From the IMG/VR virus record IMGVR_UViG_3300042545_001167, positions 32,001-96,000 of that record: a stretch of 64,000 nt of DNA; one strand, 5' to 3'. The translations under genes were made by a program, and so were the position numbers. This document shows, one piece after another, positions 1,642 through 10,991 of the stretch (position 1 is the first letter of the stretch; each line of letters begins with the position of its first letter). The notes beneath the pieces were generated by a model, which saw only the letters and a list, made by a program, of their open reading frames with translations, searched no databases and was not told where the DNA came from. Source of the stretch: a virus.

Positions 1642-4600
1642 TTATTTGCCTGTTGGTGGTGGTGAGACTAGTTTATTGTGAGATAATAAGTTTTCTGAGA
1701 TATAGGTGTGACCACCATCAACTTGAATTGCAACAACCTTTCCAGGTTCTGCACTTTCAATTTTTATAATTGTATGCCCAGAAATAATATCACCAACTTT
1801 TAAACTACAAGCTAAAACCCAACCACTTTCTTCACTATAAAATGTATGAGTAGGTGAGCAGGTAAATTCAACATGATCAAAGATAATTTTCAATCTTTCA
1901 GAATCAACTTGCTTAACATAATCAATTAAGTATTCACCCCATTCTAAAGTATGTTCATGTCGAGTTGTAATTAAATCACCAACTTTTAGATCACCTGCAT
2001 TCTTTTGAGTTCCATCTGCCATTAAGATCTTTGTCCATGGAGCAGGACAGGATGTAATTGGTGGTGATGGATTCGTTACAGGTGGATTCGTTACTGGTGG
2101 AGTAACTATCTTTAAATTGTGAGATAATAATCCTTCACAGATATAAGTGTGAGCACCCTTAATTTGAATTGCAACGACATCTCCATATTCATAATCATCA
2201 ATTTCAAGTAAGGTATGTCCACTTATAATATCCCCAATTACCATATCACAAACTCTAGTCCAACCTTTATTTTCAACATACATTTTATGAGATGTTGAGC
2301 AGACCAAATCTTTGTGGTCAAATTTCATTTTAAATCTATCTTCTTGAACGATAGAAACTTTTAATACAGAGTATTCACCCCATTCTAAAGTGTGTTCATC
2401 TTGAGTTTTTATTAAATCACCAACTTTTAGATCACCCGCATTCTTAAGAGTCCCGTCAGACATTAATATCTTTGCCCATGGTGCAGGACAAGATGGTGCC
2501 AGTGATGGTGGCGCAACTGGTGGCGCAACTGGTGGCGCAACTGGTGGCGCAACTGGTGCGGGTGGCTTTGGCGCTTTTGGTGGTGGTGCTTTTGGTGGTG
2601 GCGGTGGCGGTGGTGGTGACACAAATGCTAACAAGGGGTCTTGCTGTGTTCGTGGGAGAACAAATGGAGGTGGTGGCGGTGATTTTGGCGGTGGTGGCGG
2701 TGGTGGAGGAGGATTTCTTCTGTTGTGCGATAATAATCCGTCACTAATAAAAGTATGTGCATCATCAACTTCAATTGAAACAACATCACCATATTCAACA
2801 CTCTCCACACTTATTAATTTTTGATTACTTACAACATCACCAATTGCCATATCACAAACTCTAGTCCAACCTTTATTTTCAACATACATTTTATGAGTTG
2901 GAGAAAAAATAACCTTAGCATTATCAAAAGTAAGTTTTAATCTTTCCGACTGTAAGGTTGAATTATGTGTAATTGGATACTCTCCCCATTCTAAAGTATG
3001 TTCATGTTGAGTTTTAATTAAATCACCAACTTTCAAATCTCTAGCATTTTTTTGAGTCTTATCTGACATCAAAATCTTTGGAAATGGATTAAAAATTGGC
3101 AGTGGAGATTCTGTTAATTCAATCTTCACTGTACGCGATAACAATCCTTCACCAATAAAAGTATATGCCTCATCAACTTCAATAACAATAACATCTCCAC
3201 TTTCAGCAGGTTCTACTGACAATAGTTTTTGATTACTTATAACATCACCAATTACCATATCGGTAACTAATATCCAACCTTTACCATCAACATACATTTT
3301 ATGAGTTGGAGAGCAAGTAAAGTTAGACTCTTCAAAAGTGAGTTTTAATCTTTCTGAAGGACTTACTTTTTTATAAGTAATTGGATACTCTCCCCATTCT
3401 AAAGTATTTTTATGCTGCGTTTTAAGAATATCTCCAACCACTAAATCGCCTGCATTCTTAAGAGTTCCATCTGCCATTAAGATCTTTGTCCATGGAGCAG
3501 GACAAGATGGTGGTGGTGGCGGCGGTGGTGGAGGAGGTGGTGGGGGTGGTACATATTCGCGAATTACAACTTTTCCAAGACCGGCATTACCACCTTGTTG
3601 CGTAGAAGTAATTATTACAGACCCATCACTATATCCACTTCCACCTCCACCACCTCCACCGTTACCACCATTGCCGCCAGTTGCACCACTGCCGCCATTG
3701 CCTCCAGAATTTATTCCTTGTCCTGCAGTGCCATTAATTCCATATCCTGGTTTATATCCTCTTGCAATTGTTGCCGTATTTGTACTTACTCCTGCAGTAG
3801 GTGTATAGTACTTTGTATTTCCAACATCAGCACATGCAGAAAATCCTAGAGTGGCCCAATATTCACCTTTAGTGCAAGGTAGTACTCTACCTCCGTTGGG
3901 AGCAATTGCTAAAGTATCTCCAGATTTAAGTGTTACGAATTGAACACTAGAACCAAATATACCATTTGAGGGTAATGTTCCTGCAGCATAAAGACTTCCA
4001 CCAGACCCACTGGCAGTAAGACCTGCTACGTTAACGCCACCACCGTCACCGCCACTACCATTTTTTCCTGCATTTCCTCCTCCACCAGCAACAGCAATTA
4101 ATTTTGCTTTTTTATATAGAAAAACACCTCCACCATTTTTAGTTAGAGAAAGAGGCGTGACAGCATATTCTTCATTTTTATTTAATGTTAATCTGATTGT
4201 AGATACTCCACCTCTTCCTCCAACAAAAGTTCCATAATCTGCTCCAGCAGTTCCGTACATATCAATATATGCCTCAATACTTAGTTCTGGTGCATAAAAT
4301 GTAAGAATACTTCCAGGTGGTATTTGATCTGGATTTATTGTATATGGACCTTGAGTAACAATATTCCAAGAATATAATAGTGCCTCAGTACTGTTATCAT
4401 CCGGAATTACTTCAACGTTAAGTATTTTTCTAGGAGCAACTACATCAAGATTGGCATTATTTGTATATAATGGAGAGTTTGAAGCAGTGGGATGAGTAAT
4501 TTTTGCTCTAACAGTATTAATCCCAATATTTGGTAAAGAAATTAAAAGTTCATTTGTTTTAGAACCTTGTATAGTTGCACTGTCCGAAAGATCAGAACCA

Positions 4601-5145
4601 TTTAATTGCCATTGATAAGAAATATTTCCTTGACTAGTATCTGTAATTGATGCATTAGTAACAAATCTTGTATATGAGTTTTGTCCAATAGTACTAATGC
4701 CAGGTTGTTTTGTTACCGATAATGTTGGATAGACTGTTAAAACTGCACTACTAGATGAAATTGGATCATTTATTGCATTTCCAGTTGATCTGGCAGTACC
4801 AACTGTAATTGGATTTTCTCCATATGCAGATGGTATATAATCTGCATTTAAATAAAACTGTTTATTATGATCAGTTGGACTAACGACATTAGAAATAGTT
4901 AATGTCGTAGTTGCAGATCCAGTTACATTTGCACCATCAGTTAATGGTCCATTTTGATCATACCATCGATAAGAAATATATCCAGTGGGTATTGCAGGAT
5001 TTGGTGGAGTTTGTATGGGAAATGTTGCTGTTGCAATACCGATAAAAGTTGCAGATCCACCATTAGTAGTTGCTGCTCCAACTGGATTTGTAGTAAATGA
5101 TAGAATTGGACCGTTTAGATCTAAAGTTGTCTGTTTGTTTAACAT
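1642..5145 (-). CDS. Virion-type protein: two Ig-like domains, Gly-rich domain, then four tandem Hint domains with polyproline linkers
   Basis: ISYRWY/ISYQWQ Ig-like repeats and a GGGGG-rich region. Four 125-aa repeats with C-PAPWxKILMxDG...SxxH...GLLSHN Hint motifs. Confidence 0.85.
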   Translation of the reverse strand: MLNKQTTLDLNGPILSFTTNPVGAATTNGGSATFIGIATATFPIQTPPNPAIPTGYISYRWYDQNGPLTDGANVTGSATTTLTISNVVSPTDHNKQFYLNADYIPSAYGENPITVGTARSTGNAINDPISSSSAVLTVYPTLSVTKQPGISTIGQNSYTRFVTNASITDTSQGNISYQWQLNGSDLSDSATIQGSKTNELLISLPNIGINTVRAKITHPTASNSPLYTNNANLDVVAPRKILNVEVIPDDNSTEALLYSWNIVTQGPYTINPDQIPPGSILTFYAPELSIEAYIDMYGTAGADYGTFVGGRGGVSTIRLTLNKNEEYAVTPLSLTKNGGGVFLYKKAKLIAVAGGGGNAGKNGSGGDGGGVNVAGLTASGSGGSLYAAGTLPSNGIFGSSVQFVTLKSGDTLAIAPNGGRVLPCTKGEYWATLGFSACADVGNTKYYTPTAGVSTNTATIARGYKPGYGINGTAGQGINSGGNGGSGATGGNGGNGGGGGGGSGYSDGSVIITSTQQGGNAGLGKVVIREYVPPPPPPPPPPPPPPSCPAPWTKILMADGTLKNAGDLVVGDILKTQHKNTLEWGEYPITYKKVSPSERLKLTFEESNFTCSPTHKMYVDGKGWILVTDMVIGDVISNQKLLSVEPAESGDVIVIEVDEAYTFIGEGLLSRTVKIELTESPLPIFNPFPKILMSDKTQKNARDLKVGDLIKTQHEHTLEWGEYPITHNSTLQSERLKLTFDNAKVIFSPTHKMYVENKGWTRVCDMAIGDVVSNQKLISVESVEYGDVVSIEVDDAHTFISDGLLSHNRRNPPPPPPPPPKSPPPPPFVLPRTQQDPLLAFVSPPPPPPPPKAPPPKAPKPPAPVAPPVAPPVAPPVAPPSLAPSCPAPWAKILMSDGTLKNAGDLKVGDLIKTQDEHTLEWGEYSVLKVSIVQEDRFKMKFDHKDLVCSTSHKMYVENKGWTRVCDMVIGDIISGHTLLEIDDYEYGDVVAIQIKGAHTYICEGLLSHNLKIVTPPVTNPPVTNPSPPITSCPAPWTKILMADGTQKNAGDLKVGDLITTRHEHTLEWGEYLIDYVKQVDSERLKIIFDHVEFTCSPTHTFYSEESGWVLACSLKVGDIISGHTIIKIESAEPGKVVAIQVDGGHTYISENLLSHNKLVSPPPTGK
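1675..2049 (-). other. Hint domain 4 (aa 1033-1157), both ends intact
   Basis: S|CPAPWTKILMADG...CSPTH...NLLSHN|K. Confidence 0.85.
2116..2490 (-). other. Hint domain 3 (aa 886-1010), both ends intact
   Basis: S|CPAPWAKILMSDG...CSTSH...GLLSHN|L. Confidence 0.85.
2506..2553. repeat. Perfect 12-bp tandem repeat x4 encoding (VAPP)4
   Basis: tggtggcgcaac four times. Confidence 0.95.
2722..3096 (-). other. Hint domain 2 (aa 684-808): Cys1 lost (Ile), C-terminal HN intact
   Basis: IFNPFPKILMSD...FSPTH...GLLSHN|R. Confidence 0.8.
3130..3504 (-). other. Hint domain 1 (aa 548-672): Cys1 intact, C-terminal HN replaced by RT
   Basis: S|CPAPWTKILMADG...CSPTH...GLLSRT. Confidence 0.8.
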
Positions 5146-5156
5146 ATCAATCTCCT

Positions 5157-8100
5157 TTAGTTAACAAAGTTTTGTCCGTCAACGAAACCGTACCAAGATA
5201 CTCCACCATCAAAAGTCTTGAATGAATATATATCCGCTCTATTTGCAGTTGGTGTTATGGTTGGCAGAACACCACCACCAGGCCAATAAACCGGTAAAAT
5301 TCCTCCACTAGAATTTCTAAAGTCATCAATATCAACCAGATATCCACCAATTGCATTTTGTGCAATTTTAATAACAAATGAACTTGCTCCAGATGGTGCA
5401 TTAATAATCGTAAATTGATTAACTGTTTCCGATAATGTAAAATCGAATGACTGTGCCTGAGACAGATCAATTGTGACAATATTAGACGAACTTGAGATTG
5501 TTTGAACAACTTCGGAATATGTCTTAAATCTTGTATGCCCCTCAATGTCAAGTTTTGCTCTTGGTACTGCTGTTCCAATACCAATTAATGGACCATTAGT
5601 TGTGAGCGTAGTTCCAGCACTACCAACTATAAGATTTGTTGTAGTAACAATACCTGCTCTAATTTGACCCGATGTTGACTTTAGATCAAATGCCGTTGCG
5701 GTTAGCATTCCGCTTACAAATACATTATTTGCGGTGATAATTCCAGCAAATACTGCCTCTCCATTAACATAAAGTGTCGTTGCAGATGTTCCAACAGGAC
5801 CAACTTCAAGATTAAATCTAGGAACTGATGTACCAATACCAACAGTACCCAATAATGTATTATAAATTCCACCACTAATTTGAGACCACCCGGCAGCACT
5901 TACATTTATATTTGTTAATCCACTTCCATCGCCAGAGAAGTAAGAACCGTAGCAAGTGCCGATGAAATTTGTACTGCCATTTATCTGAAGTTTAAATTGA
6001 TTTGCACTGGTTCCAATGCCAACACCACCACTTGAATTAATGGAAACAATTGAAGATCCACCACCAACCTGAAGAAGATTGGAACCGGGACTTGTGGTTG
6101 CAATACCAACCTGATCAAAGAGAGCAATATTTAAATCTTTGGAAAGGCTGACAGCACCAAAACGATACCATTCATTGTCAGTAGTATAAACCCATCCAAG
6201 ATATCCACCCTTCGTTGGATTTTGATAGTAAATTACATCTCCAGGATTACCCGAAAGTATTGGTGTAGTAACTCCAACGGTATATTTTCTAGAAACTGTA
6301 GCATCGCCCTGCAAGAACAGCGAGAATGCTTCAATACCTTTATTGGAAGTTGATGTTATCTTATTTCCAAATACAACAGGTCCATTAAACTCAGAAATTG
6401 ATTTGCCATCACTACCACCATCAACACGAATTGAACGACTAAATGTTCCTTGAACTGGAGTAATAACATTTAATCCAGGAAGTCCTCCAATATCTTCACC
6501 AGTTACAGTTTGGACAGGAGTATCAAAGATTTCTTCTTGACCTGTAACTGAACTCAATCTCTTATTTCCTGAGTATGAAATACCCTTATCATTCATACCA
6601 GTATAGAAGTTAATACCACCATCTTTTCTGGTTGATTGTGCAAGGAGTTCCTCTATTGAAGAAATCTGACGATCTTGTTTATCTGGGAATGCAGTTGAAT
6701 AGTTACCAGGACCAAATCCAACATATTCAAATGTATGACCAGATGCACGAATGATTGAATGCCTACGGAACTCAATTGGATTGGCATAAATTCTTCTTAC
6801 AACAGAGTTGACTGAATGACTAACTGCTTTTGTTCCAAGAACTCCACGGAAAACATAAATTGGATTTGTTGGAGTACTTGGAATAGTTGTTTTTACTCTC
6901 ACGATTTCTTCGTCAATTACCAAATAATCACCAATTTTAATATCAAGATTTTCAATATTTTGAATGTTAATCTGGTCCGTAAGTGCATCTGGAATAAGTG
7001 CTGATAAAGTAGTTGTAATTCCAGCATAAGTTGGAATCATTCTGCCATTTAAATTTTCATTATCAACTGTAATTGTACCACCATTTGATGTTACACCTTC
7101 GCGATATGCATAAAGAGTTCCTGCTGCTGAAGGAGAAAATGTTCCAACACCAATCGTAACGGAGAATGAATTTAGATTGAGATTTTCTTTGACAACAAAA
7201 TCTCCGTTATATATTTCTTCAGTAGATCCTATTAAACGAATCTTATTATCAACCTTTAACCCATGACGGTTAGAAGTTGTAATAGTTGCAATTCCAGAAT
7301 TATTATCATATGCCAATGAACTAACTCTAATTGCTTCTCCAGTTAGGTCAGCAAATGCATTTAATGTAAATTGCGTTCCAATACCAAGTGTTGAACCAAC
7401 TGAAATTGAAGATGCAGAAGAAACTGCAAATCTATACCCAGCTCCAACAGTAACATTTGTAATTCTATAAAGATCATTAAATGTAGAATAACCTTCGGAG
7501 GATACTCCAGAAATTCTGATAGTATCTCCAACATTATTATAGATTTGAGTAACTGTTACTACTGCCGGAGAATATCCTGTGGTTGTTGCAACACCTACAA
7601 CAGAAAGAGTATTTCCAATTCCATAAGAAGACCCACCATCCATGATTACAATATCAGAAATAGATCCTGATCCATCTACTGATATTTTGGCAGTAGCGAA
7701 GGCACCTGTAGCAGATCCAGCAAATCCAACAAGACTTGCATTATATAAACTTGTAGCACTTCCATACCCATATCCAGATCCAGCATTAGTAATACTGACT
7801 TGTGTGATACGATTTAATCCATGATCAATAGCAGTATGTACAGTATGTGTAGATGCATCTGTTGAAGTAATATCTGTAATAGCAATGCCTACATTACTAT
7901 CCGATAGAACTTTGGAGATTGTTTCTTTTGTAATACTCTTACGGACATCATTAACTACAACTTCACCAATTACTGATGAAGATGCAAACGATTGAGTCTC
8001 ATCTGGATCTGATTCTGGATTATCACGATTTGTTTGCGGATAAAGTTCTTTTACTGGTTGAGAATATTTTTCCTCAGTAAAAGGATCAACACTTGGGGAA

Positions 8101-10991
8101 TTGGAGGAATTTAGAACAGTTAAGTAATAGACACCATCTTGTTGCCCTGCAATATATTTTTGTGCTTCTTGAGTTTTGAGATTATAATAGGTATTCTTAT
8201 ACTTACTTCTTTTAAAATATGGAAGAGAAGAATCTCTTGCTGAAATATCATTTGTTAATGCACCTGGATCAGTGTCTAAAGCAAATGTAAATACTTTAGC
8301 ATTTGTAATTGTACTTACTACATAAGTTCCATTATATCCAGAATTACTTGCACCAATTACATTATTTGAACTTTTAATATTAAAAAATGTGACTTCAGAT
8401 CCTACTGATAAATTATGAGGAAGTTCTGTAGTGATATATGCAATACCTGCTTGCCACTGGGCATCAGCAACGAATCTAAAGTTTCTTTGCTGATTTACAT
8501 TTGAAATAGAACCAGCACCAAAATAAGTTTGAATTTCTCCGCTAGTTGCTCCAATAGTGGTATTAGATTCTTGAATAACAAATCCATCACTTGGTGGTCT
8601 TGCATACAATCCAGAAGATGCGGGAATTACATATCTTAGACGATAAATCGTATCATTTGCATTTCTTGAATCTTGCTTACGATTGATATATGTTCTAGGA
8701 GTTGCTGCACCAAGAATAGTTGAACCAAAACTTACGATTGCTGGATAAATCTTATTATCAGTTTCACTGTTTGATACCTGAATATACCATTGTGAATTAT
8801 TGTAATCAAACTGAACTGGGTGTCCAATGTCCCCAGAATTCTTATCAGATACTCTACTTACAACACTTAAAATACCACCTTTGTTGTTAATTAAAATCTC
8901 ACTTGCACTGATGGCATCGTTTTGAGTTTTTGCAAGTTTCAGTTGCGTAGTTGTTGTAAGTCCACTGCTTGCATTACTACTCGTAATTGCATAATAAACT
9001 GTATTTGGCAACAAACCATCAGGAAGTTGTCCATTATCACTCAATATGCGAACTGATTCTCCATTTATAAATGTATGATTTTGTGTTAATGAAAGTGTAT
9101 TGCTGGAAATATTATTAATACCAGAAATACTACGACTTACATAGAATTTCTTCTCAGAAGTTGTCTGAGATCCAGGCATTACAATACGAGCACTATATTC
9201 TGATGCAGTGCTTCCTGCTGAAATTATAACTTTTAGAGTATCATTTTCTCTAGCACCAATACGATATCCTTCTAGAACATTTTCTGGTGCAACATCAGAG
9301 TTTGTTTGATTATAAAGATAGAGATATCCTGTTGAAGCAACCCCAACGGTCTTACTTACGTCAATTGAATTAAATTCAATTGCGGTTTCAACCTTTGGAA
9401 TTTCTTTTGGTGGAATAATATGAGTGATATAACCAAGATCATCTTGAGGAAATGCATTTCTTCTAAAACCTGAAGCAACAAGTGCCTTTGCTCCAAAGTT
9501 AGAGTTTGAGTTGGTAACTGAAAAGTCACCACCACTTTCTACAGCAAAATGTTCAGCATAACCAATCGCAAAGATTGAAACATTCTGAACAAATGCATCA
9601 TTAATTGCCTTAATATGGAAATTCCTATATGTGGGTTTAAAGATTGCTCTTGAATTTGTACTAATTGTCTCATTTCCAGGAACTGTAGTATCATCATAAG
9701 TTCCCGTAGATGAATTGTACAATACAAACGCATTATCATCTTTCTGCAATCCAATACCCGTGAATTGGGCAATAACCATTGATTTAAATCCTGATGCCTT
9801 ATCACCATCAGCAAGAACTCCGCACATTCCATAAACAGAACGTAAAGAGATGTTAAAGATGTATGGAGATGCTGAAGTTACAGTATCGGAAGTAAGTGAT
9901 AAAGTTGACCCAGTTGATGATGGGAAAGCAACCAATGGGGCATTTTGAACTTGATATTTAATTACAGTGTCACTTAATTTTTCAGTTACAACAAATTGTC
10001 CGTTATAACCTTCTGCAATAATACCAGAAATTCTGAATGGAGTATCTACATCAAGGCCAGATACGCCAGATTCAGTAGTAACTGTAATTATTTTTGATGG
10101 AGTAATTCCATTACCAGAAATAATACTTGAAATACCAACAGATGCTCCAGTAGAACCTACAATACGATATTCATCAATCTTGGGTTGAATATCAATGCTA
10201 GATGAAGGATAATCTGGTTCAATTGCACGACCAGATGATTGTCCATATGCAAGTCCAACTTTCTCATAATACATATCCAGGTCAGTACGATCTGTTGAAT
10301 ATGTTTGAAAAACATCATCAATATTTACATCATTTACTCCATCAGCATATTCAAAGCAAGATAATTTGTGATGAGAGAAGTTAGGTACAAAAAGATTTTC
10401 AGTGTAATCAAGATAGCACTGTCCATTTGGATCGGCATCAAATAAAGAAAACTGCCATATATAACATCCGCCGGTTACACGGAAAATAGTCGATCTTTCA
10501 ATATTATCGTTAGTTGGATTGGGAACATACTTTGGACGAATTTTAGTCTTTCTTAAATCGAGTCCAACAATTGAAGTACCACGAGGAATAATAACTCCTC
10601 CATGAATACTATTCATTTTATAAAGTACGTTATCTGATGTAGTGAGATCAAAGTTTGATGTTAAATCCCAAGCAGGAAAATTATTACTTGTAGAACCATT
10701 CCTAAGTCTAAAATTATTTGAACCATCAGGAATCCATCCTGGACGATTATCTATAACGTGATCGCCTGGATATAGAAGAATTGTTGTTTTACCAAATCTA
10801 TCATTATTCAGTCCTCTTTGGTAAGAGAATCTTGATGCCTCAATTAGTGCTCTTTGAATCGTTTTAAATGGACGAGTCAGTGAGTTTCCTTGATTCTCAA
10901 TACTATCCGTAGAATCAAGACTGTTTGGATCAACATATATGATTGTACCACGAACAGACTTTAGAAAATTATCTAAACGAGAGAGACCCAT
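5157..10991 (-). CDS. Large virion structural / tail fibre-associated protein (1944 aa)
   Basis: N-terminal GNSLTRPFKTIQRAL motif typical of cyanomyovirus structural proteins, repeated beta domains (HGLxV, GSGY), VGIGT fibre repeats near the C-terminus. Confidence 0.75.
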   Translation of the reverse strand: MGLSRLDNFLKSVRGTIIYVDPNSLDSTDSIENQGNSLTRPFKTIQRALIEASRFSYQRGLNNDRFGKTTILLYPGDHVIDNRPGWIPDGSNNFRLRNGSTSNNFPAWDLTSNFDLTTSDNVLYKMNSIHGGVIIPRGTSIVGLDLRKTKIRPKYVPNPTNDNIERSTIFRVTGGCYIWQFSLFDADPNGQCYLDYTENLFVPNFSHHKLSCFEYADGVNDVNIDDVFQTYSTDRTDLDMYYEKVGLAYGQSSGRAIEPDYPSSSIDIQPKIDEYRIVGSTGASVGISSIISGNGITPSKIITVTTESGVSGLDVDTPFRISGIIAEGYNGQFVVTEKLSDTVIKYQVQNAPLVAFPSSTGSTLSLTSDTVTSASPYIFNISLRSVYGMCGVLADGDKASGFKSMVIAQFTGIGLQKDDNAFVLYNSSTGTYDDTTVPGNETISTNSRAIFKPTYRNFHIKAINDAFVQNVSIFAIGYAEHFAVESGGDFSVTNSNSNFGAKALVASGFRRNAFPQDDLGYITHIIPPKEIPKVETAIEFNSIDVSKTVGVASTGYLYLYNQTNSDVAPENVLEGYRIGARENDTLKVIISAGSTASEYSARIVMPGSQTTSEKKFYVSRSISGINNISSNTLSLTQNHTFINGESVRILSDNGQLPDGLLPNTVYYAITSSNASSGLTTTTQLKLAKTQNDAISASEILINNKGGILSVVSRVSDKNSGDIGHPVQFDYNNSQWYIQVSNSETDNKIYPAIVSFGSTILGAATPRTYINRKQDSRNANDTIYRLRYVIPASSGLYARPPSDGFVIQESNTTIGATSGEIQTYFGAGSISNVNQQRNFRFVADAQWQAGIAYITTELPHNLSVGSEVTFFNIKSSNNVIGASNSGYNGTYVVSTITNAKVFTFALDTDPGALTNDISARDSSLPYFKRSKYKNTYYNLKTQEAQKYIAGQQDGVYYLTVLNSSNSPSVDPFTEEKYSQPVKELYPQTNRDNPESDPDETQSFASSSVIGEVVVNDVRKSITKETISKVLSDSNVGIAITDITSTDASTHTVHTAIDHGLNRITQVSITNAGSGYGYGSATSLYNASLVGFAGSATGAFATAKISVDGSGSISDIVIMDGGSSYGIGNTLSVVGVATTTGYSPAVVTVTQIYNNVGDTIRISGVSSEGYSTFNDLYRITNVTVGAGYRFAVSSASSISVGSTLGIGTQFTLNAFADLTGEAIRVSSLAYDNNSGIATITTSNRHGLKVDNKIRLIGSTEEIYNGDFVVKENLNLNSFSVTIGVGTFSPSAAGTLYAYREGVTSNGGTITVDNENLNGRMIPTYAGITTTLSALIPDALTDQINIQNIENLDIKIGDYLVIDEEIVRVKTTIPSTPTNPIYVFRGVLGTKAVSHSVNSVVRRIYANPIEFRRHSIIRASGHTFEYVGFGPGNYSTAFPDKQDRQISSIEELLAQSTRKDGGINFYTGMNDKGISYSGNKRLSSVTGQEEIFDTPVQTVTGEDIGGLPGLNVITPVQGTFSRSIRVDGGSDGKSISEFNGPVVFGNKITSTSNKGIEAFSLFLQGDATVSRKYTVGVTTPILSGNPGDVIYYQNPTKGGYLGWVYTTDNEWYRFGAVSLSKDLNIALFDQVGIATTSPGSNLLQVGGGSSIVSINSSGGVGIGTSANQFKLQINGSTNFIGTCYGSYFSGDGSGLTNINVSAAGWSQISGGIYNTLLGTVGIGTSVPRFNLEVGPVGTSATTLYVNGEAVFAGIITANNVFVSGMLTATAFDLKSTSGQIRAGIVTTTNLIVGSAGTTLTTNGPLIGIGTAVPRAKLDIEGHTRFKTYSEVVQTISSSSNIVTIDLSQAQSFDFTLSETVNQFTIINAPSGASSFVIKIAQNAIGGYLVDIDDFRNSSGGILPVYWPGGGVLPTITPTANRADIYSFKTFDGGVSWYGFVDGQNFVN

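Follow-up and report, generated by a model that had tools for sequence, protein, structure and literature searches.

Complementary catalytic losses at one inner junction of a four-domain Hint array in a protein of a cyanomyophage tail-fibre gene cluster

Type-A bacterial intein-like (BIL) domains carry Cys at position 1 (Cys1) and a C-terminal His-Asn pair and lack a nucleophile at the +1 position (PMC4031507, PMC7664689, PMC7765530). As described in the excerpts of these reports drawn on here, they are located in variable regions of non-conserved proteins, and ligation is possible through attack on the thioester by the amine that Asn cyclisation liberates (PMC4031507, PMC7664689, PMC7765530); the products are mostly those of N- and C-cleavage, two chemistries that are independent of each other (PMC4031507, PMC7664689). 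Excerpts of related work report that the BIL2 domain of a ciliate BUBL locus forms an isopeptide with the epsilon-amine of Lys (PMC8616854) and that the Hedgehog Hint domain uses the N-S acyl shift only (PMC7664689). The subject of this report is a tandem array of four Hint domains, each 125 amino acids (aa) long and minimal in that no insert is present, at the C terminus of a protein encoded in a 64,000-nucleotide (nt) stretch of viral DNA. This stretch, termed the window, comprises bases 32001-96000 of the 116,709-base virus record IMGVR_UViG_3300042545_001167, which has a completeness estimate of 53%, and has a G+C content of about 35%. BIL-like Hint domains are already known; new here is a phage array with one silenced inner junction.

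The silenced junction lies between the first two domains, Hint1 and Hint2, which together with their linker occupy aa 548-808 of a minus-strand open reading frame (ORF; nt 2722-3504). The features that define it are as follows.

3130..3504, minus strand: Hint1, aa 548-672; Cys1 and block B (Ser612, His615) present, C-terminal cleavage set gone.
3502..3504, minus strand: Cys548, position 1 of Hint1, the retained nucleophile of the outer N-junction.
3163..3165, minus strand: Tyr661 (TAT) where the block-F His of Hint1 is expected.
3130..3135, minus strand: Arg671-Thr672 (CGT ACA), replacing the terminal His-Asn of Hint1.
3097..3129, minus strand: inner linker VKIELTESPLP, aa 673-683, 11 aa.
2722..3096, minus strand: Hint2, aa 684-808; block B (Ser748, His751), block-F His797 and terminal His-Asn (HN) present, Cys1 gone.
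3094..3096, minus strand: Ile684 (ATT) at the Cys1 position of Hint2.
2722..2727, minus strand: His807-Asn808, the retained outer C-junction of Hint2; RRN follows, with no Lys within +4.

These losses complement each other and flank the same 11-aa linker, and the outer junctions (Cys548 and His807-Asn808), Hint3 and Hint4 are intact. Cys1 is found in Hint1, Hint3 and Hint4 but is replaced by Ile684 in Hint2; the C-terminal His-Asn is found in Hint2, Hint3 and Hint4 but is replaced by Arg-Thr in Hint1. Cys548 and Ile684 were placed at the Cys1 position by alignment to canonical inteins, to the Pfam profile Hom_end_hint (profile position 5 corresponds to residue 552) and to a family hidden Markov model (HMM). 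The block-F motif of Hint1 reads EAYTF, compared with AHTF or AHTY, at a column that is His in 93% of 160 family sequences. The whole C-side set of Hint1, composed of the block-F His, the penultimate His and the terminal Asn, has been replaced. The codon changes (CAY to TAT, CAC AAT to CGT ACA, and TGT to ATT) take 1-2 point substitutions each. An original prediction, made from the letters of the window, had described Hint1 as keeping Cys1 and ending in GLLSRT, Hint2 as having Ile at the Cys1 position and keeping SHN, and VKIELTESPLP as the only spacer without a PP run; this description is accurate throughout, the inner linker being 18% Pro and the other four spacers 30-93% Pro with PP in each.

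Several other accounts of the junction were considered and rejected. A frameshift or deletion scar between Hint1 and Hint2 is ruled out: the linker is in frame, it starts like the 22-aa spacer between Hint3 and Hint4 (VKIELT..P and LKIVT..P, respectively), and point substitutions suffice. Duplication of a two-Hint unit, with Hint1/Hint2 corresponding to Hint3/Hint4, is ruled out by pairwise identities of 55-63% at the aa level, which show no such pairing. A class 2 or class 3 intein mechanism for the Cys-less Hint2 is ruled out by the +1 residue, which is Arg and not Cys. Lastly, a sequencing artefact is ruled out by five IMG/VR contigs of a sister lineage that have the same substitutions.

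Such substitutions are rare in the family. A profile of the four window domains matches 2138 cluster representatives at E <= 1e-3, of which 449 reach E <= 1e-10 and 80 reach E <= 1e-30. Catalytic residues were surveyed in 207 domain instances with scores of at least 60, taken from 58 homolog proteins, 150 listed profile matches and the window, and every alignment that stopped short of the model ends was inspected individually. Position 1 could be scored in 182 of the 207 instances and is Cys in 180, Ile in 1 (Hint2 of the window) and Gly in 1 (homolog P0232); the unscorable instances are 21 ORFs that start within the domain and 4 second halves of domains split by insertions. The C-terminal pair, scorable in 205 of the 207 (2 are truncated), is His-Asn in 203, Arg-Thr in 1 (Hint1 of the window) and His-Asp in 1 (P0232). 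The block-F His is laxer, with K, R, A, F, E, S or G in about a dozen instances. Conservation of Cys1, block-B His and terminal HN reaches 99-100% in the 160 family sequences. The 76 instances from 71 further viral loci (2 truncated on the N side, 3 on the C side) showed no substituted Cys1 or His-Asn; this sample is somewhat biased to intact domains because each locus was retrieved by patterns that called for an intact block B or a '..SH' end in one or more of its domains.

The one other departure, P0232, is a 163-aa stand-alone Hint homolog with Gly at position 1, Arg at block F, a His-Asp end, and an N-terminal motif that resembles that of the window; it may be a decayed or domesticated non-catalytic copy. 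Judged from these residues, catalytic loss does occur elsewhere in the family, where it is not complementary. Because such losses are so rare, two independent hits on the same linker are very unlikely, and the two losses in the window are probably causally linked. The paired loss is shared by one sister lineage and by none of the 14 other tandem arrays in the family (P0001-P0006, P0179-P0184, P0186 and P0192), all of which have both inner junctions intact.

The survey also revealed a conserved residue downstream of the domains. A Lys follows the terminal Asn at +1 in 143 and at +2 in 41 of 194 instances (184/194 together), and a Lys occupies +1 or +2 in 73/73 viral-locus instances. Hint2 of the window, followed by RRN, is among only 3 of the 194 instances with no Lys within +4. 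Over all 207 instances the +1 residue is Lys in 153, Ser in 4, Thr in 3 and Cys in 0. This conservation suggests a role for the amine or the charge of the Lys in Hint chemistry.

The sister lineage consists of the IMG/VR contigs L001-L005, which are near-identical and were counted as one lineage. Each encodes an ortholog of 1152-1154 aa in which the four domains recur with the paired loss unchanged (EAYTF...SRT, then IFNQFP). The synonymous divergence (dS) between the window and this lineage is about 0.15. At the 20 remaining catalytic positions of the array, neither lineage has a change, and the aa sequence of the inner linker is identical, with 1 synonymous change. A further contig, L006, which appeared to be a 52% relative, is actually a sister-lineage fragment beginning at Hint3 and was rejected as a separate relative. 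Ratios of nonsynonymous to synonymous divergence (dN/dS, or omega), calculated by the Nei-Gojobori method for the window and L001, are listed below, with p values from a binomial comparison with neutrality.

Hint1: dN/dS 0.095; 13 synonymous and 5 nonsynonymous changes; p 6e-6.
Hint2: dN/dS 0.358; 4 synonymous and 6 nonsynonymous changes; p 0.11.
Hint1 and Hint2 pooled: dN/dS 0.168; 17 synonymous and 11 nonsynonymous changes; p 4e-6.
Hint3: dN/dS 0.060; 4 synonymous and 1 nonsynonymous change.
Hint4: dN/dS 0.088; 11 synonymous and 4 nonsynonymous changes.
N-terminal body: dN/dS 0.228; 53 synonymous and 39 nonsynonymous changes.
Inner linker: 1 synonymous and 0 nonsynonymous changes; dN/dS not meaningful.

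The low dN/dS values argue against decay of the array. Against a family HMM of the 160 sequences, with the window left out, Hint1, Hint2, Hint3 and Hint4 score 162, 170, 184 and 175 bits, respectively. At 31 columns conserved at 85% or more, Hint1 departs at 7, Hint2 at 6, Hint3 at 2 and Hint4 at 3, and the surplus departures of Hint1 and Hint2 are mostly junction residues. That the array is not decaying, as the original prediction argued, is supported by the sister lineage, which keeps the arrangement, by the pooled omega, and by the HMM scores of the two altered domains. Two of the six replacements that separate Hint2 from its sister-lineage ortholog fall within its first 13 residues, one of them at Pro4, a column that is 99% Pro in the family; this distribution fits a local relaxation around the dead N-end of Hint2.

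The Pro-rich spacers (2491-2721 and 2050-2115) are where the two lineages diverge most, through indels and in repeat type. Examples in the comparison with L001 are VAPP repeats versus plain Pro runs, TPPVTNPPVTNPSPP versus TPPPPPPAQPPPPPP, and Pro14 versus Pro13 or Pro15. At the sequence level, these spacers look like slippage-prone low-complexity DNA.

The two altered domains retain their folds in structure prediction. An AlphaFold2 model of aa 548-808, made from a 26-row alignment, has a mean predicted local distance difference test score (pLDDT) of 91.4 and a predicted TM-score (pTM) of 0.51. The model contains two beta-rich domains and no Hint1-Hint2 domain contact, and pLDDT falls below 50 at model residues 129-138 (linker and first two Hint2 residues), so that the linker is predicted to be disordered. 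Together, the pTM and the low linker pLDDT point to two independent domains, and as modeled Hint1 and Hint2 are independent Hint folds on a flexible tether. The idea that the pair acts as one double-sized unit is therefore not sustained in a cooperative sense; 'one unit' would describe the predicted product rather than a cooperative catalyst. A Foldseek search against the PDB gave 53 matches at E <= 1e-3, and those listed are all BIL, intein or Hedgehog domains. The top ten have TM-scores (target) of 0.72-0.83. The best match is the BIL2 domain of the Tetrahymena BUBL1 locus (E 1.4e-8); other top matches are the mini-inteins Ssp DnaB, gp41-1 and MchDnaB-1 and the Clostridium thermocellum BIL 2lwy, with the Hedgehog Hint domain lower.

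Profile searches place the array in the same superfamily. The whole protein matches the Pfam profiles Hom_end_hint (46.9 bits; cut-off 32.1) and Intein_splicing (41.0 bits; cut-off 35.8). By fold and by whole-protein profile match, the domains belong to the HINT (Hedgehog/intein) superfamily. The residues at +1 of the four window domains are V, R, L and K; canonical splicing via a branched intermediate is therefore excluded. Canonical class 1 inteins have a +1 Cys, Ser or Thr, interrupt essential host proteins at conserved sites and often contain a homing endonuclease. The array differs on these points: it has no such +1 residue, it is appended where 4 of 16 inspected orthologs end, and its domains contain no insert. 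The best reading of the domains is as type-A BIL-like autoprocessing domains, for which processing is predicted. No Pfam domain was found in the spacers, which are 10-77 aa in length and of low complexity.

Similar to type-A BILs (Amitai et al. 2003; Dassa et al. 2004; 2lwy), as these are described in the excerpts used here, the window domains have a Hint fold, a block-B x-x-His and no +1 nucleophile, together with Cys1 in Hint1, Hint3 and Hint4 and His-Asn in Hint2, Hint3 and Hint4. The array is also located in a variable region, homologs of the protein body being mostly Hint-less and the Hint family being spread across unrelated hosts. The nearest proxy here for the A-type BIL sequence motifs of Amitai et al. 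is 2lwy, the best PDB sequence match, which was found with Hint4 as the query (E 3e-4). The main differences are that the window family is found in marine phage structural proteins rather than in bacterial proteins, that it has a near-universal Lys at +1 or +2 and a block-B Ser instead of Thr, and that the window array has Pro-rich spacers and contains one member without the C-side set and a neighbor without Cys1.

The ciliate BUBL loci (Dassa, Yanai & Pietrokovski 2004; BIL2 structures 6y75 and 6tmm) likewise encode a polyprotein with several intein-like domains and short cargo between them. They differ in their eukaryotic host and in a cargo that is ubiquitin-like rather than composed of Pro-rich spacers, identity between BIL2 and the window domains is 15-16%, and the excerpted BUBL descriptions do not mention complementary inactivation of neighboring domains. 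In the pretoxin HINT domains of polymorphic toxins (PF07591), a Hint domain precedes a variable C-terminal module and is thought to release it. Unlike this arrangement, the window has no toxin module after Hint4, just 10 residues, and Hint4 scores below the gathering threshold of the profile (E 1.2e-4, 22.8 bits; cut-off 27.7). Hint1, Hint2 and Hint3 do not match PF07591 when searched singly, and the profile is annotated on 18 of 58 listed homologs (precomputed).

In engineered inteins, changing Cys1 to Ala leaves only C-cleavage and changing the terminal Asn to Ala leaves only N-cleavage. Hint2 is a natural counterpart of the Cys1 mutant, and Hint1 of the Asn mutant or of the Hedgehog Hint domain. 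Unlike in the engineered half-reaction mutants, the substitutions in the window are natural, and the two predicted half-active domains are adjacent in one chain. The literature searched contained no description of tandem Hint domains, nor of arrays of Hint or BIL domains in structural proteins of phages, and a large family of BIL-like domains in marine phage structural proteins is apparently undescribed.

The reading favored here, held with somewhat better than even confidence, is that of a type-A-BIL-like array in which Hint1 is an N-cleaver only and Hint2 a C-cleaver only, with a predicted 261-aa by-product and an origin of the paired loss in one lineage-specific event. In an intact domain of the family, the N-junction would form a thioester from Cys1, helped by the block-B Ser-x-x-His, and the C-junction would be cut by cyclisation of the terminal Asn, aided by the penultimate and block-F His residues. 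Without a +1 nucleophile, cleavage would be expected, and at most an amine-mediated ligation. At the boundary between Hint1 and Hint2, no chemistry would be expected at either linker end (672|673 and 683|684), because Hint1 has lost its full set of three C-side residues and Hint2 its Cys1. Hint1 would cleave or activate 547|548 and the body would be released; Hint2 would cut 808|809. A single by-product of Hint1, linker and Hint2 would result, 261 aa in length and composed of two independently folded domains.

Which residues were lost first is likewise a matter of inference. After the first loss, the second would have been neutral or compensatory, the pair constituting one lineage-specific event. 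In a neutral route, separating the two by-products would bring no benefit. In a compensatory route, Cys1 of Hint2 would have been lost first, such that Hint1, its C-side still active, could ligate the body to a Hint2 that could no longer be removed; killing the Hint1 C-side would then restore clean release of the body. If the prediction is correct, N-cleavage-only and C-cleavage-only half-reactions occur naturally side by side within one phage protein, and a Hint array can have one of its inner junctions silenced yet keep its domains. The paired loss itself is a modest lineage-specific curiosity; the wider point is the Hint family, with its strict Cys1 and His-Asn and the Lys that follows.

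Several observations weigh against this reading. Two losses placed randomly in a four-domain array abut in 3 of 16 cases, such that adjacency alone is weak evidence and the argument rests on the family-wide rarity of the losses. Searched singly, the Hint domains score under the Pfam gathering thresholds, and Hint2 alone is not significantly below neutrality (p = 0.11). The near-universal Lys after the Asn hints at ligation or conjugation chemistry outside a plain cleavage model. In addition, P0050, P0052 and P0054 retain the terminal HN although no more than 2-7 residues lie beyond it; Asn cyclisation may serve something besides release of a C-terminal product, in which case the logic of a by-product would be incomplete.

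A more adaptive view, put forward in the original prediction, is that selection keeps processing only beside Pro-rich peptides (and the body) as functional products and has shaped Hint1-Hint2 as one excision unit. The sole PP-less spacer is indeed the spacer with two dead junctions, both lineages have intact outer junctions and an intact Hint3 and Hint4, and the 12-aa Hint flanks across the family are moderately Pro-rich (mean Pro 17% on the N-side and 19% on the C-side). This view is nevertheless unlikely. Short Pro-free linkers of 4-7 aa have both inner junctions intact in P0003 (LVGKGS), P0179 (LVGKGGG) and P0192 (KLDS), in keeping with the 14/14 intact arrays, and many family members have intact junctions beside Ala/Lys-rich, Arg-rich or Gly-rich flanks. 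The Pro spacers vary between the two lineages and the inner linker is identical, the opposite of what would be expected for a conserved Pro-peptide product. Moreover, the paired loss is only one evolutionary event, so selection for it is inseparable from a second loss that was neutral or compensatory. The view that a selfish or redundant repeat array has begun to decay, with the paired loss as its first visible damage, is a still weaker contender and is judged very improbable: the ORF is intact in two lineages separated by the dS given above, omega is 0.06-0.36 across the four domains, and substitutions at catalytic positions are limited to one junction. On the other side stand the dispensability of the extension in most orthologs and the higher counts of conserved-column departures in Hint1 and Hint2.

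The remaining alternatives concern what the domains do. In one, the N-junction thioester would be captured by the conserved post-Asn Lys, or by a Lys of another virion protein, in the manner of BUBL BIL2; Hint1 would move the body to Lys674 or to a partner, and the Hint1-Hint2 pair could remain as a branch. Beyond the near-universal Lys, Hint1 keeps Lys674 despite its dead HN, Hint2, which without Cys1 would form no thioester, is one of the few domains with no Lys nearby, and the best structural match is the very domain, BUBL BIL2, for which the excerpted report describes isopeptide formation with Lys (PMC8616854). The low identity to BIL2 speaks against this alternative, as does the report, in the excerpts cited, that type-A BILs yield mainly cleavage products (PMC7664689, PMC4031507); the conserved Lys could instead tune Asn cyclisation or just mark the flank. 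Lys conjugation is accordingly considered quite unlikely. Its broadest form, in which the marine-phage Hint family would be a self-contained, ATP-independent protein-conjugation device, with Hint1 transferring the body C terminus to Lys674 or a partner and Hint2 trimming the far end, is a similarly speculative proposition; if true, the double unit would leave no excised by-product but, as a rewired conjugation module, would yield a virion protein that is branched or cross-linked. It is equally doubtful that the Hint domains are non-catalytic in vivo, serving as structural or binding modules of a fiber-associated protein in which the boundary substitutions have no effect on processing. Purifying selection does act on whole-domain folds, and the stand-alone P0232 persists as an ORF without its position-1 residue, block-F His or terminal Asn; however, the 99-100% conservation of Cys1, block-B His and HN (160 sequences; 76 viral instances) is hard to explain without catalysis, and related BIL domains are experimentally active according to the excerpted reports (PMC7664689, PMC7765530, PMC4031507).

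The gene that encodes the array belongs to a recognizable phage locus. The features of its ORF outside the Hint1-Hint2 segment are as follows.

1642..5145, minus strand: ORF, 1167 aa, stop included in the coordinates; a conserved N-terminal body, then the four-Hint C-terminal array.
3550..5145, minus strand: N-terminal body, aa 1-532, closing with a Gly-rich module; most orthologs end about here.
3505..3549, minus strand: Pro14-Ser spacer, aa 533-547, the N-flank of Hint1.
2491..2721, minus strand: 77-aa Pro-rich spacer, aa 809-885, 52% Pro.
2116..2490, minus strand: Hint3, aa 886-1010, every catalytic position canonical.
2050..2115, minus strand: 22-aa spacer, aa 1011-1032.
1675..2049, minus strand: Hint4, aa 1033-1157, every catalytic position canonical, +1 Lys.
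1645..1674, minus strand: C-terminal tail KLVSPPPTGK, 10 aa.

The start of this ORF matches that of the orthologs P0003 and P0020. Its first 540 aa match phrog_24848, a family for which the function is not known, and in a tblastn search of a phage collection the matches to cultured cyanomyophages (Bellamy, P-TIM68, S-SM2 and SynMITS9220M01) are confined to aa 1-470. The upstream neighbor (5157-10991, 1944 aa) is a tail fibre protein (phrog_529, E = 0). The gene thus codes for a protein of a cyanomyophage tail-fibre gene cluster, and the Hint array is an accessory extension of it. Downstream, an open-ended minus-strand ORF (3-986) is rich in GIATYATSSGI-type repeats and has a fibre-like look, and a plus-strand gene for a 189-aa 2-oxoglutarate (2OG)-Fe(II) oxygenase-like protein (1068-1637; phrog_61, E 2.4e-12) lies between the repeat ORF and the Hint-array gene.

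The best 120 of 1327 homologs of the N-terminal domain (E <= 1e-3) contain no Hint. The Hint-bearing orthologs of this domain are P0003, with two Hints, and P0020, with one, all catalytically intact. Sixteen homologs were inspected, namely 14 of the best 120 together with P0003 and P0020. Four of these (P0068, P0078, P0085 and P0118; 674-713 aa) stop directly after the Gly-rich module, where the window has Pro14 and the Hints, and 10 have unrelated C-terminal modules. From these comparisons, the C terminus of the body-protein family is a swap point for accessory modules. The Hint family is also found in unrelated hosts, including DUF4815 proteins and basic, Arg-rich proteins.

Searches for closer relatives of the array gave few matches. 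A megablast search of the ORF against the phage collection gave no match, and tblastn against the same collection found no cultured ortholog of the array, its Hint part matching one unrelated faecal phage contig at 32%. A scan of metagenome contigs with Hint1-Hint2 gave 64 pattern matches, none of which was confirmed. Scans of viral contigs with Hint1-Hint2, the N-domain and alignment A2 recovered the one sister lineage and distant, Hint-less N-domain homologs, and no intermediate lineage that would order the two losses was found in them.

Within the array, the first 75 nt of Hint1, Hint3 and Hint4 (3430-3504, 2416-2490 and 1975-2049) are 81-89% mutually identical, compared with 52-80% for the remainder of the domains; the first 75 nt of Hint2 are 65-72% identical to those of the other three. 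This pattern at the 5' ends points to gene conversion or strong constraint, which Hint2 would have escaped.

Additional variation is observed elsewhere in the family. Distant Hint relatives (P0269, P0312 and P0050/P0051) form back-to-back arrays with linkers of 0-2 aa (...HN-CF...), in which Cys1 of the next domain can act as the +1 nucleophile of the preceding one, and which differ in architecture from the spaced, Lys-flanked arrays. The 21 proteins that start within a Hint domain (P0032, P0039, P0218 and P0228, for example) do so mostly at the conserved Met6 or Met10; they may be N-terminally Cys-less Hints able to cut only on the C-side, or gene-calling artefacts. In P0182, P0184, P0224, P0233, P0235, P0239, P0243, P0246, P0252, P0265 and P0305, an insertion of about 30 aa follows model position 37, and this subgroup consists of very basic, Arg/Lys-rich proteins. 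Lastly, in L063 and L064 a weak match (19 bits) covers model positions 1-99 of the Hint domain, including Cys1 and block B but not the C-terminal part; it sits in a 752-aa frame adjoining a full Hint-bearing ORF in a different frame.

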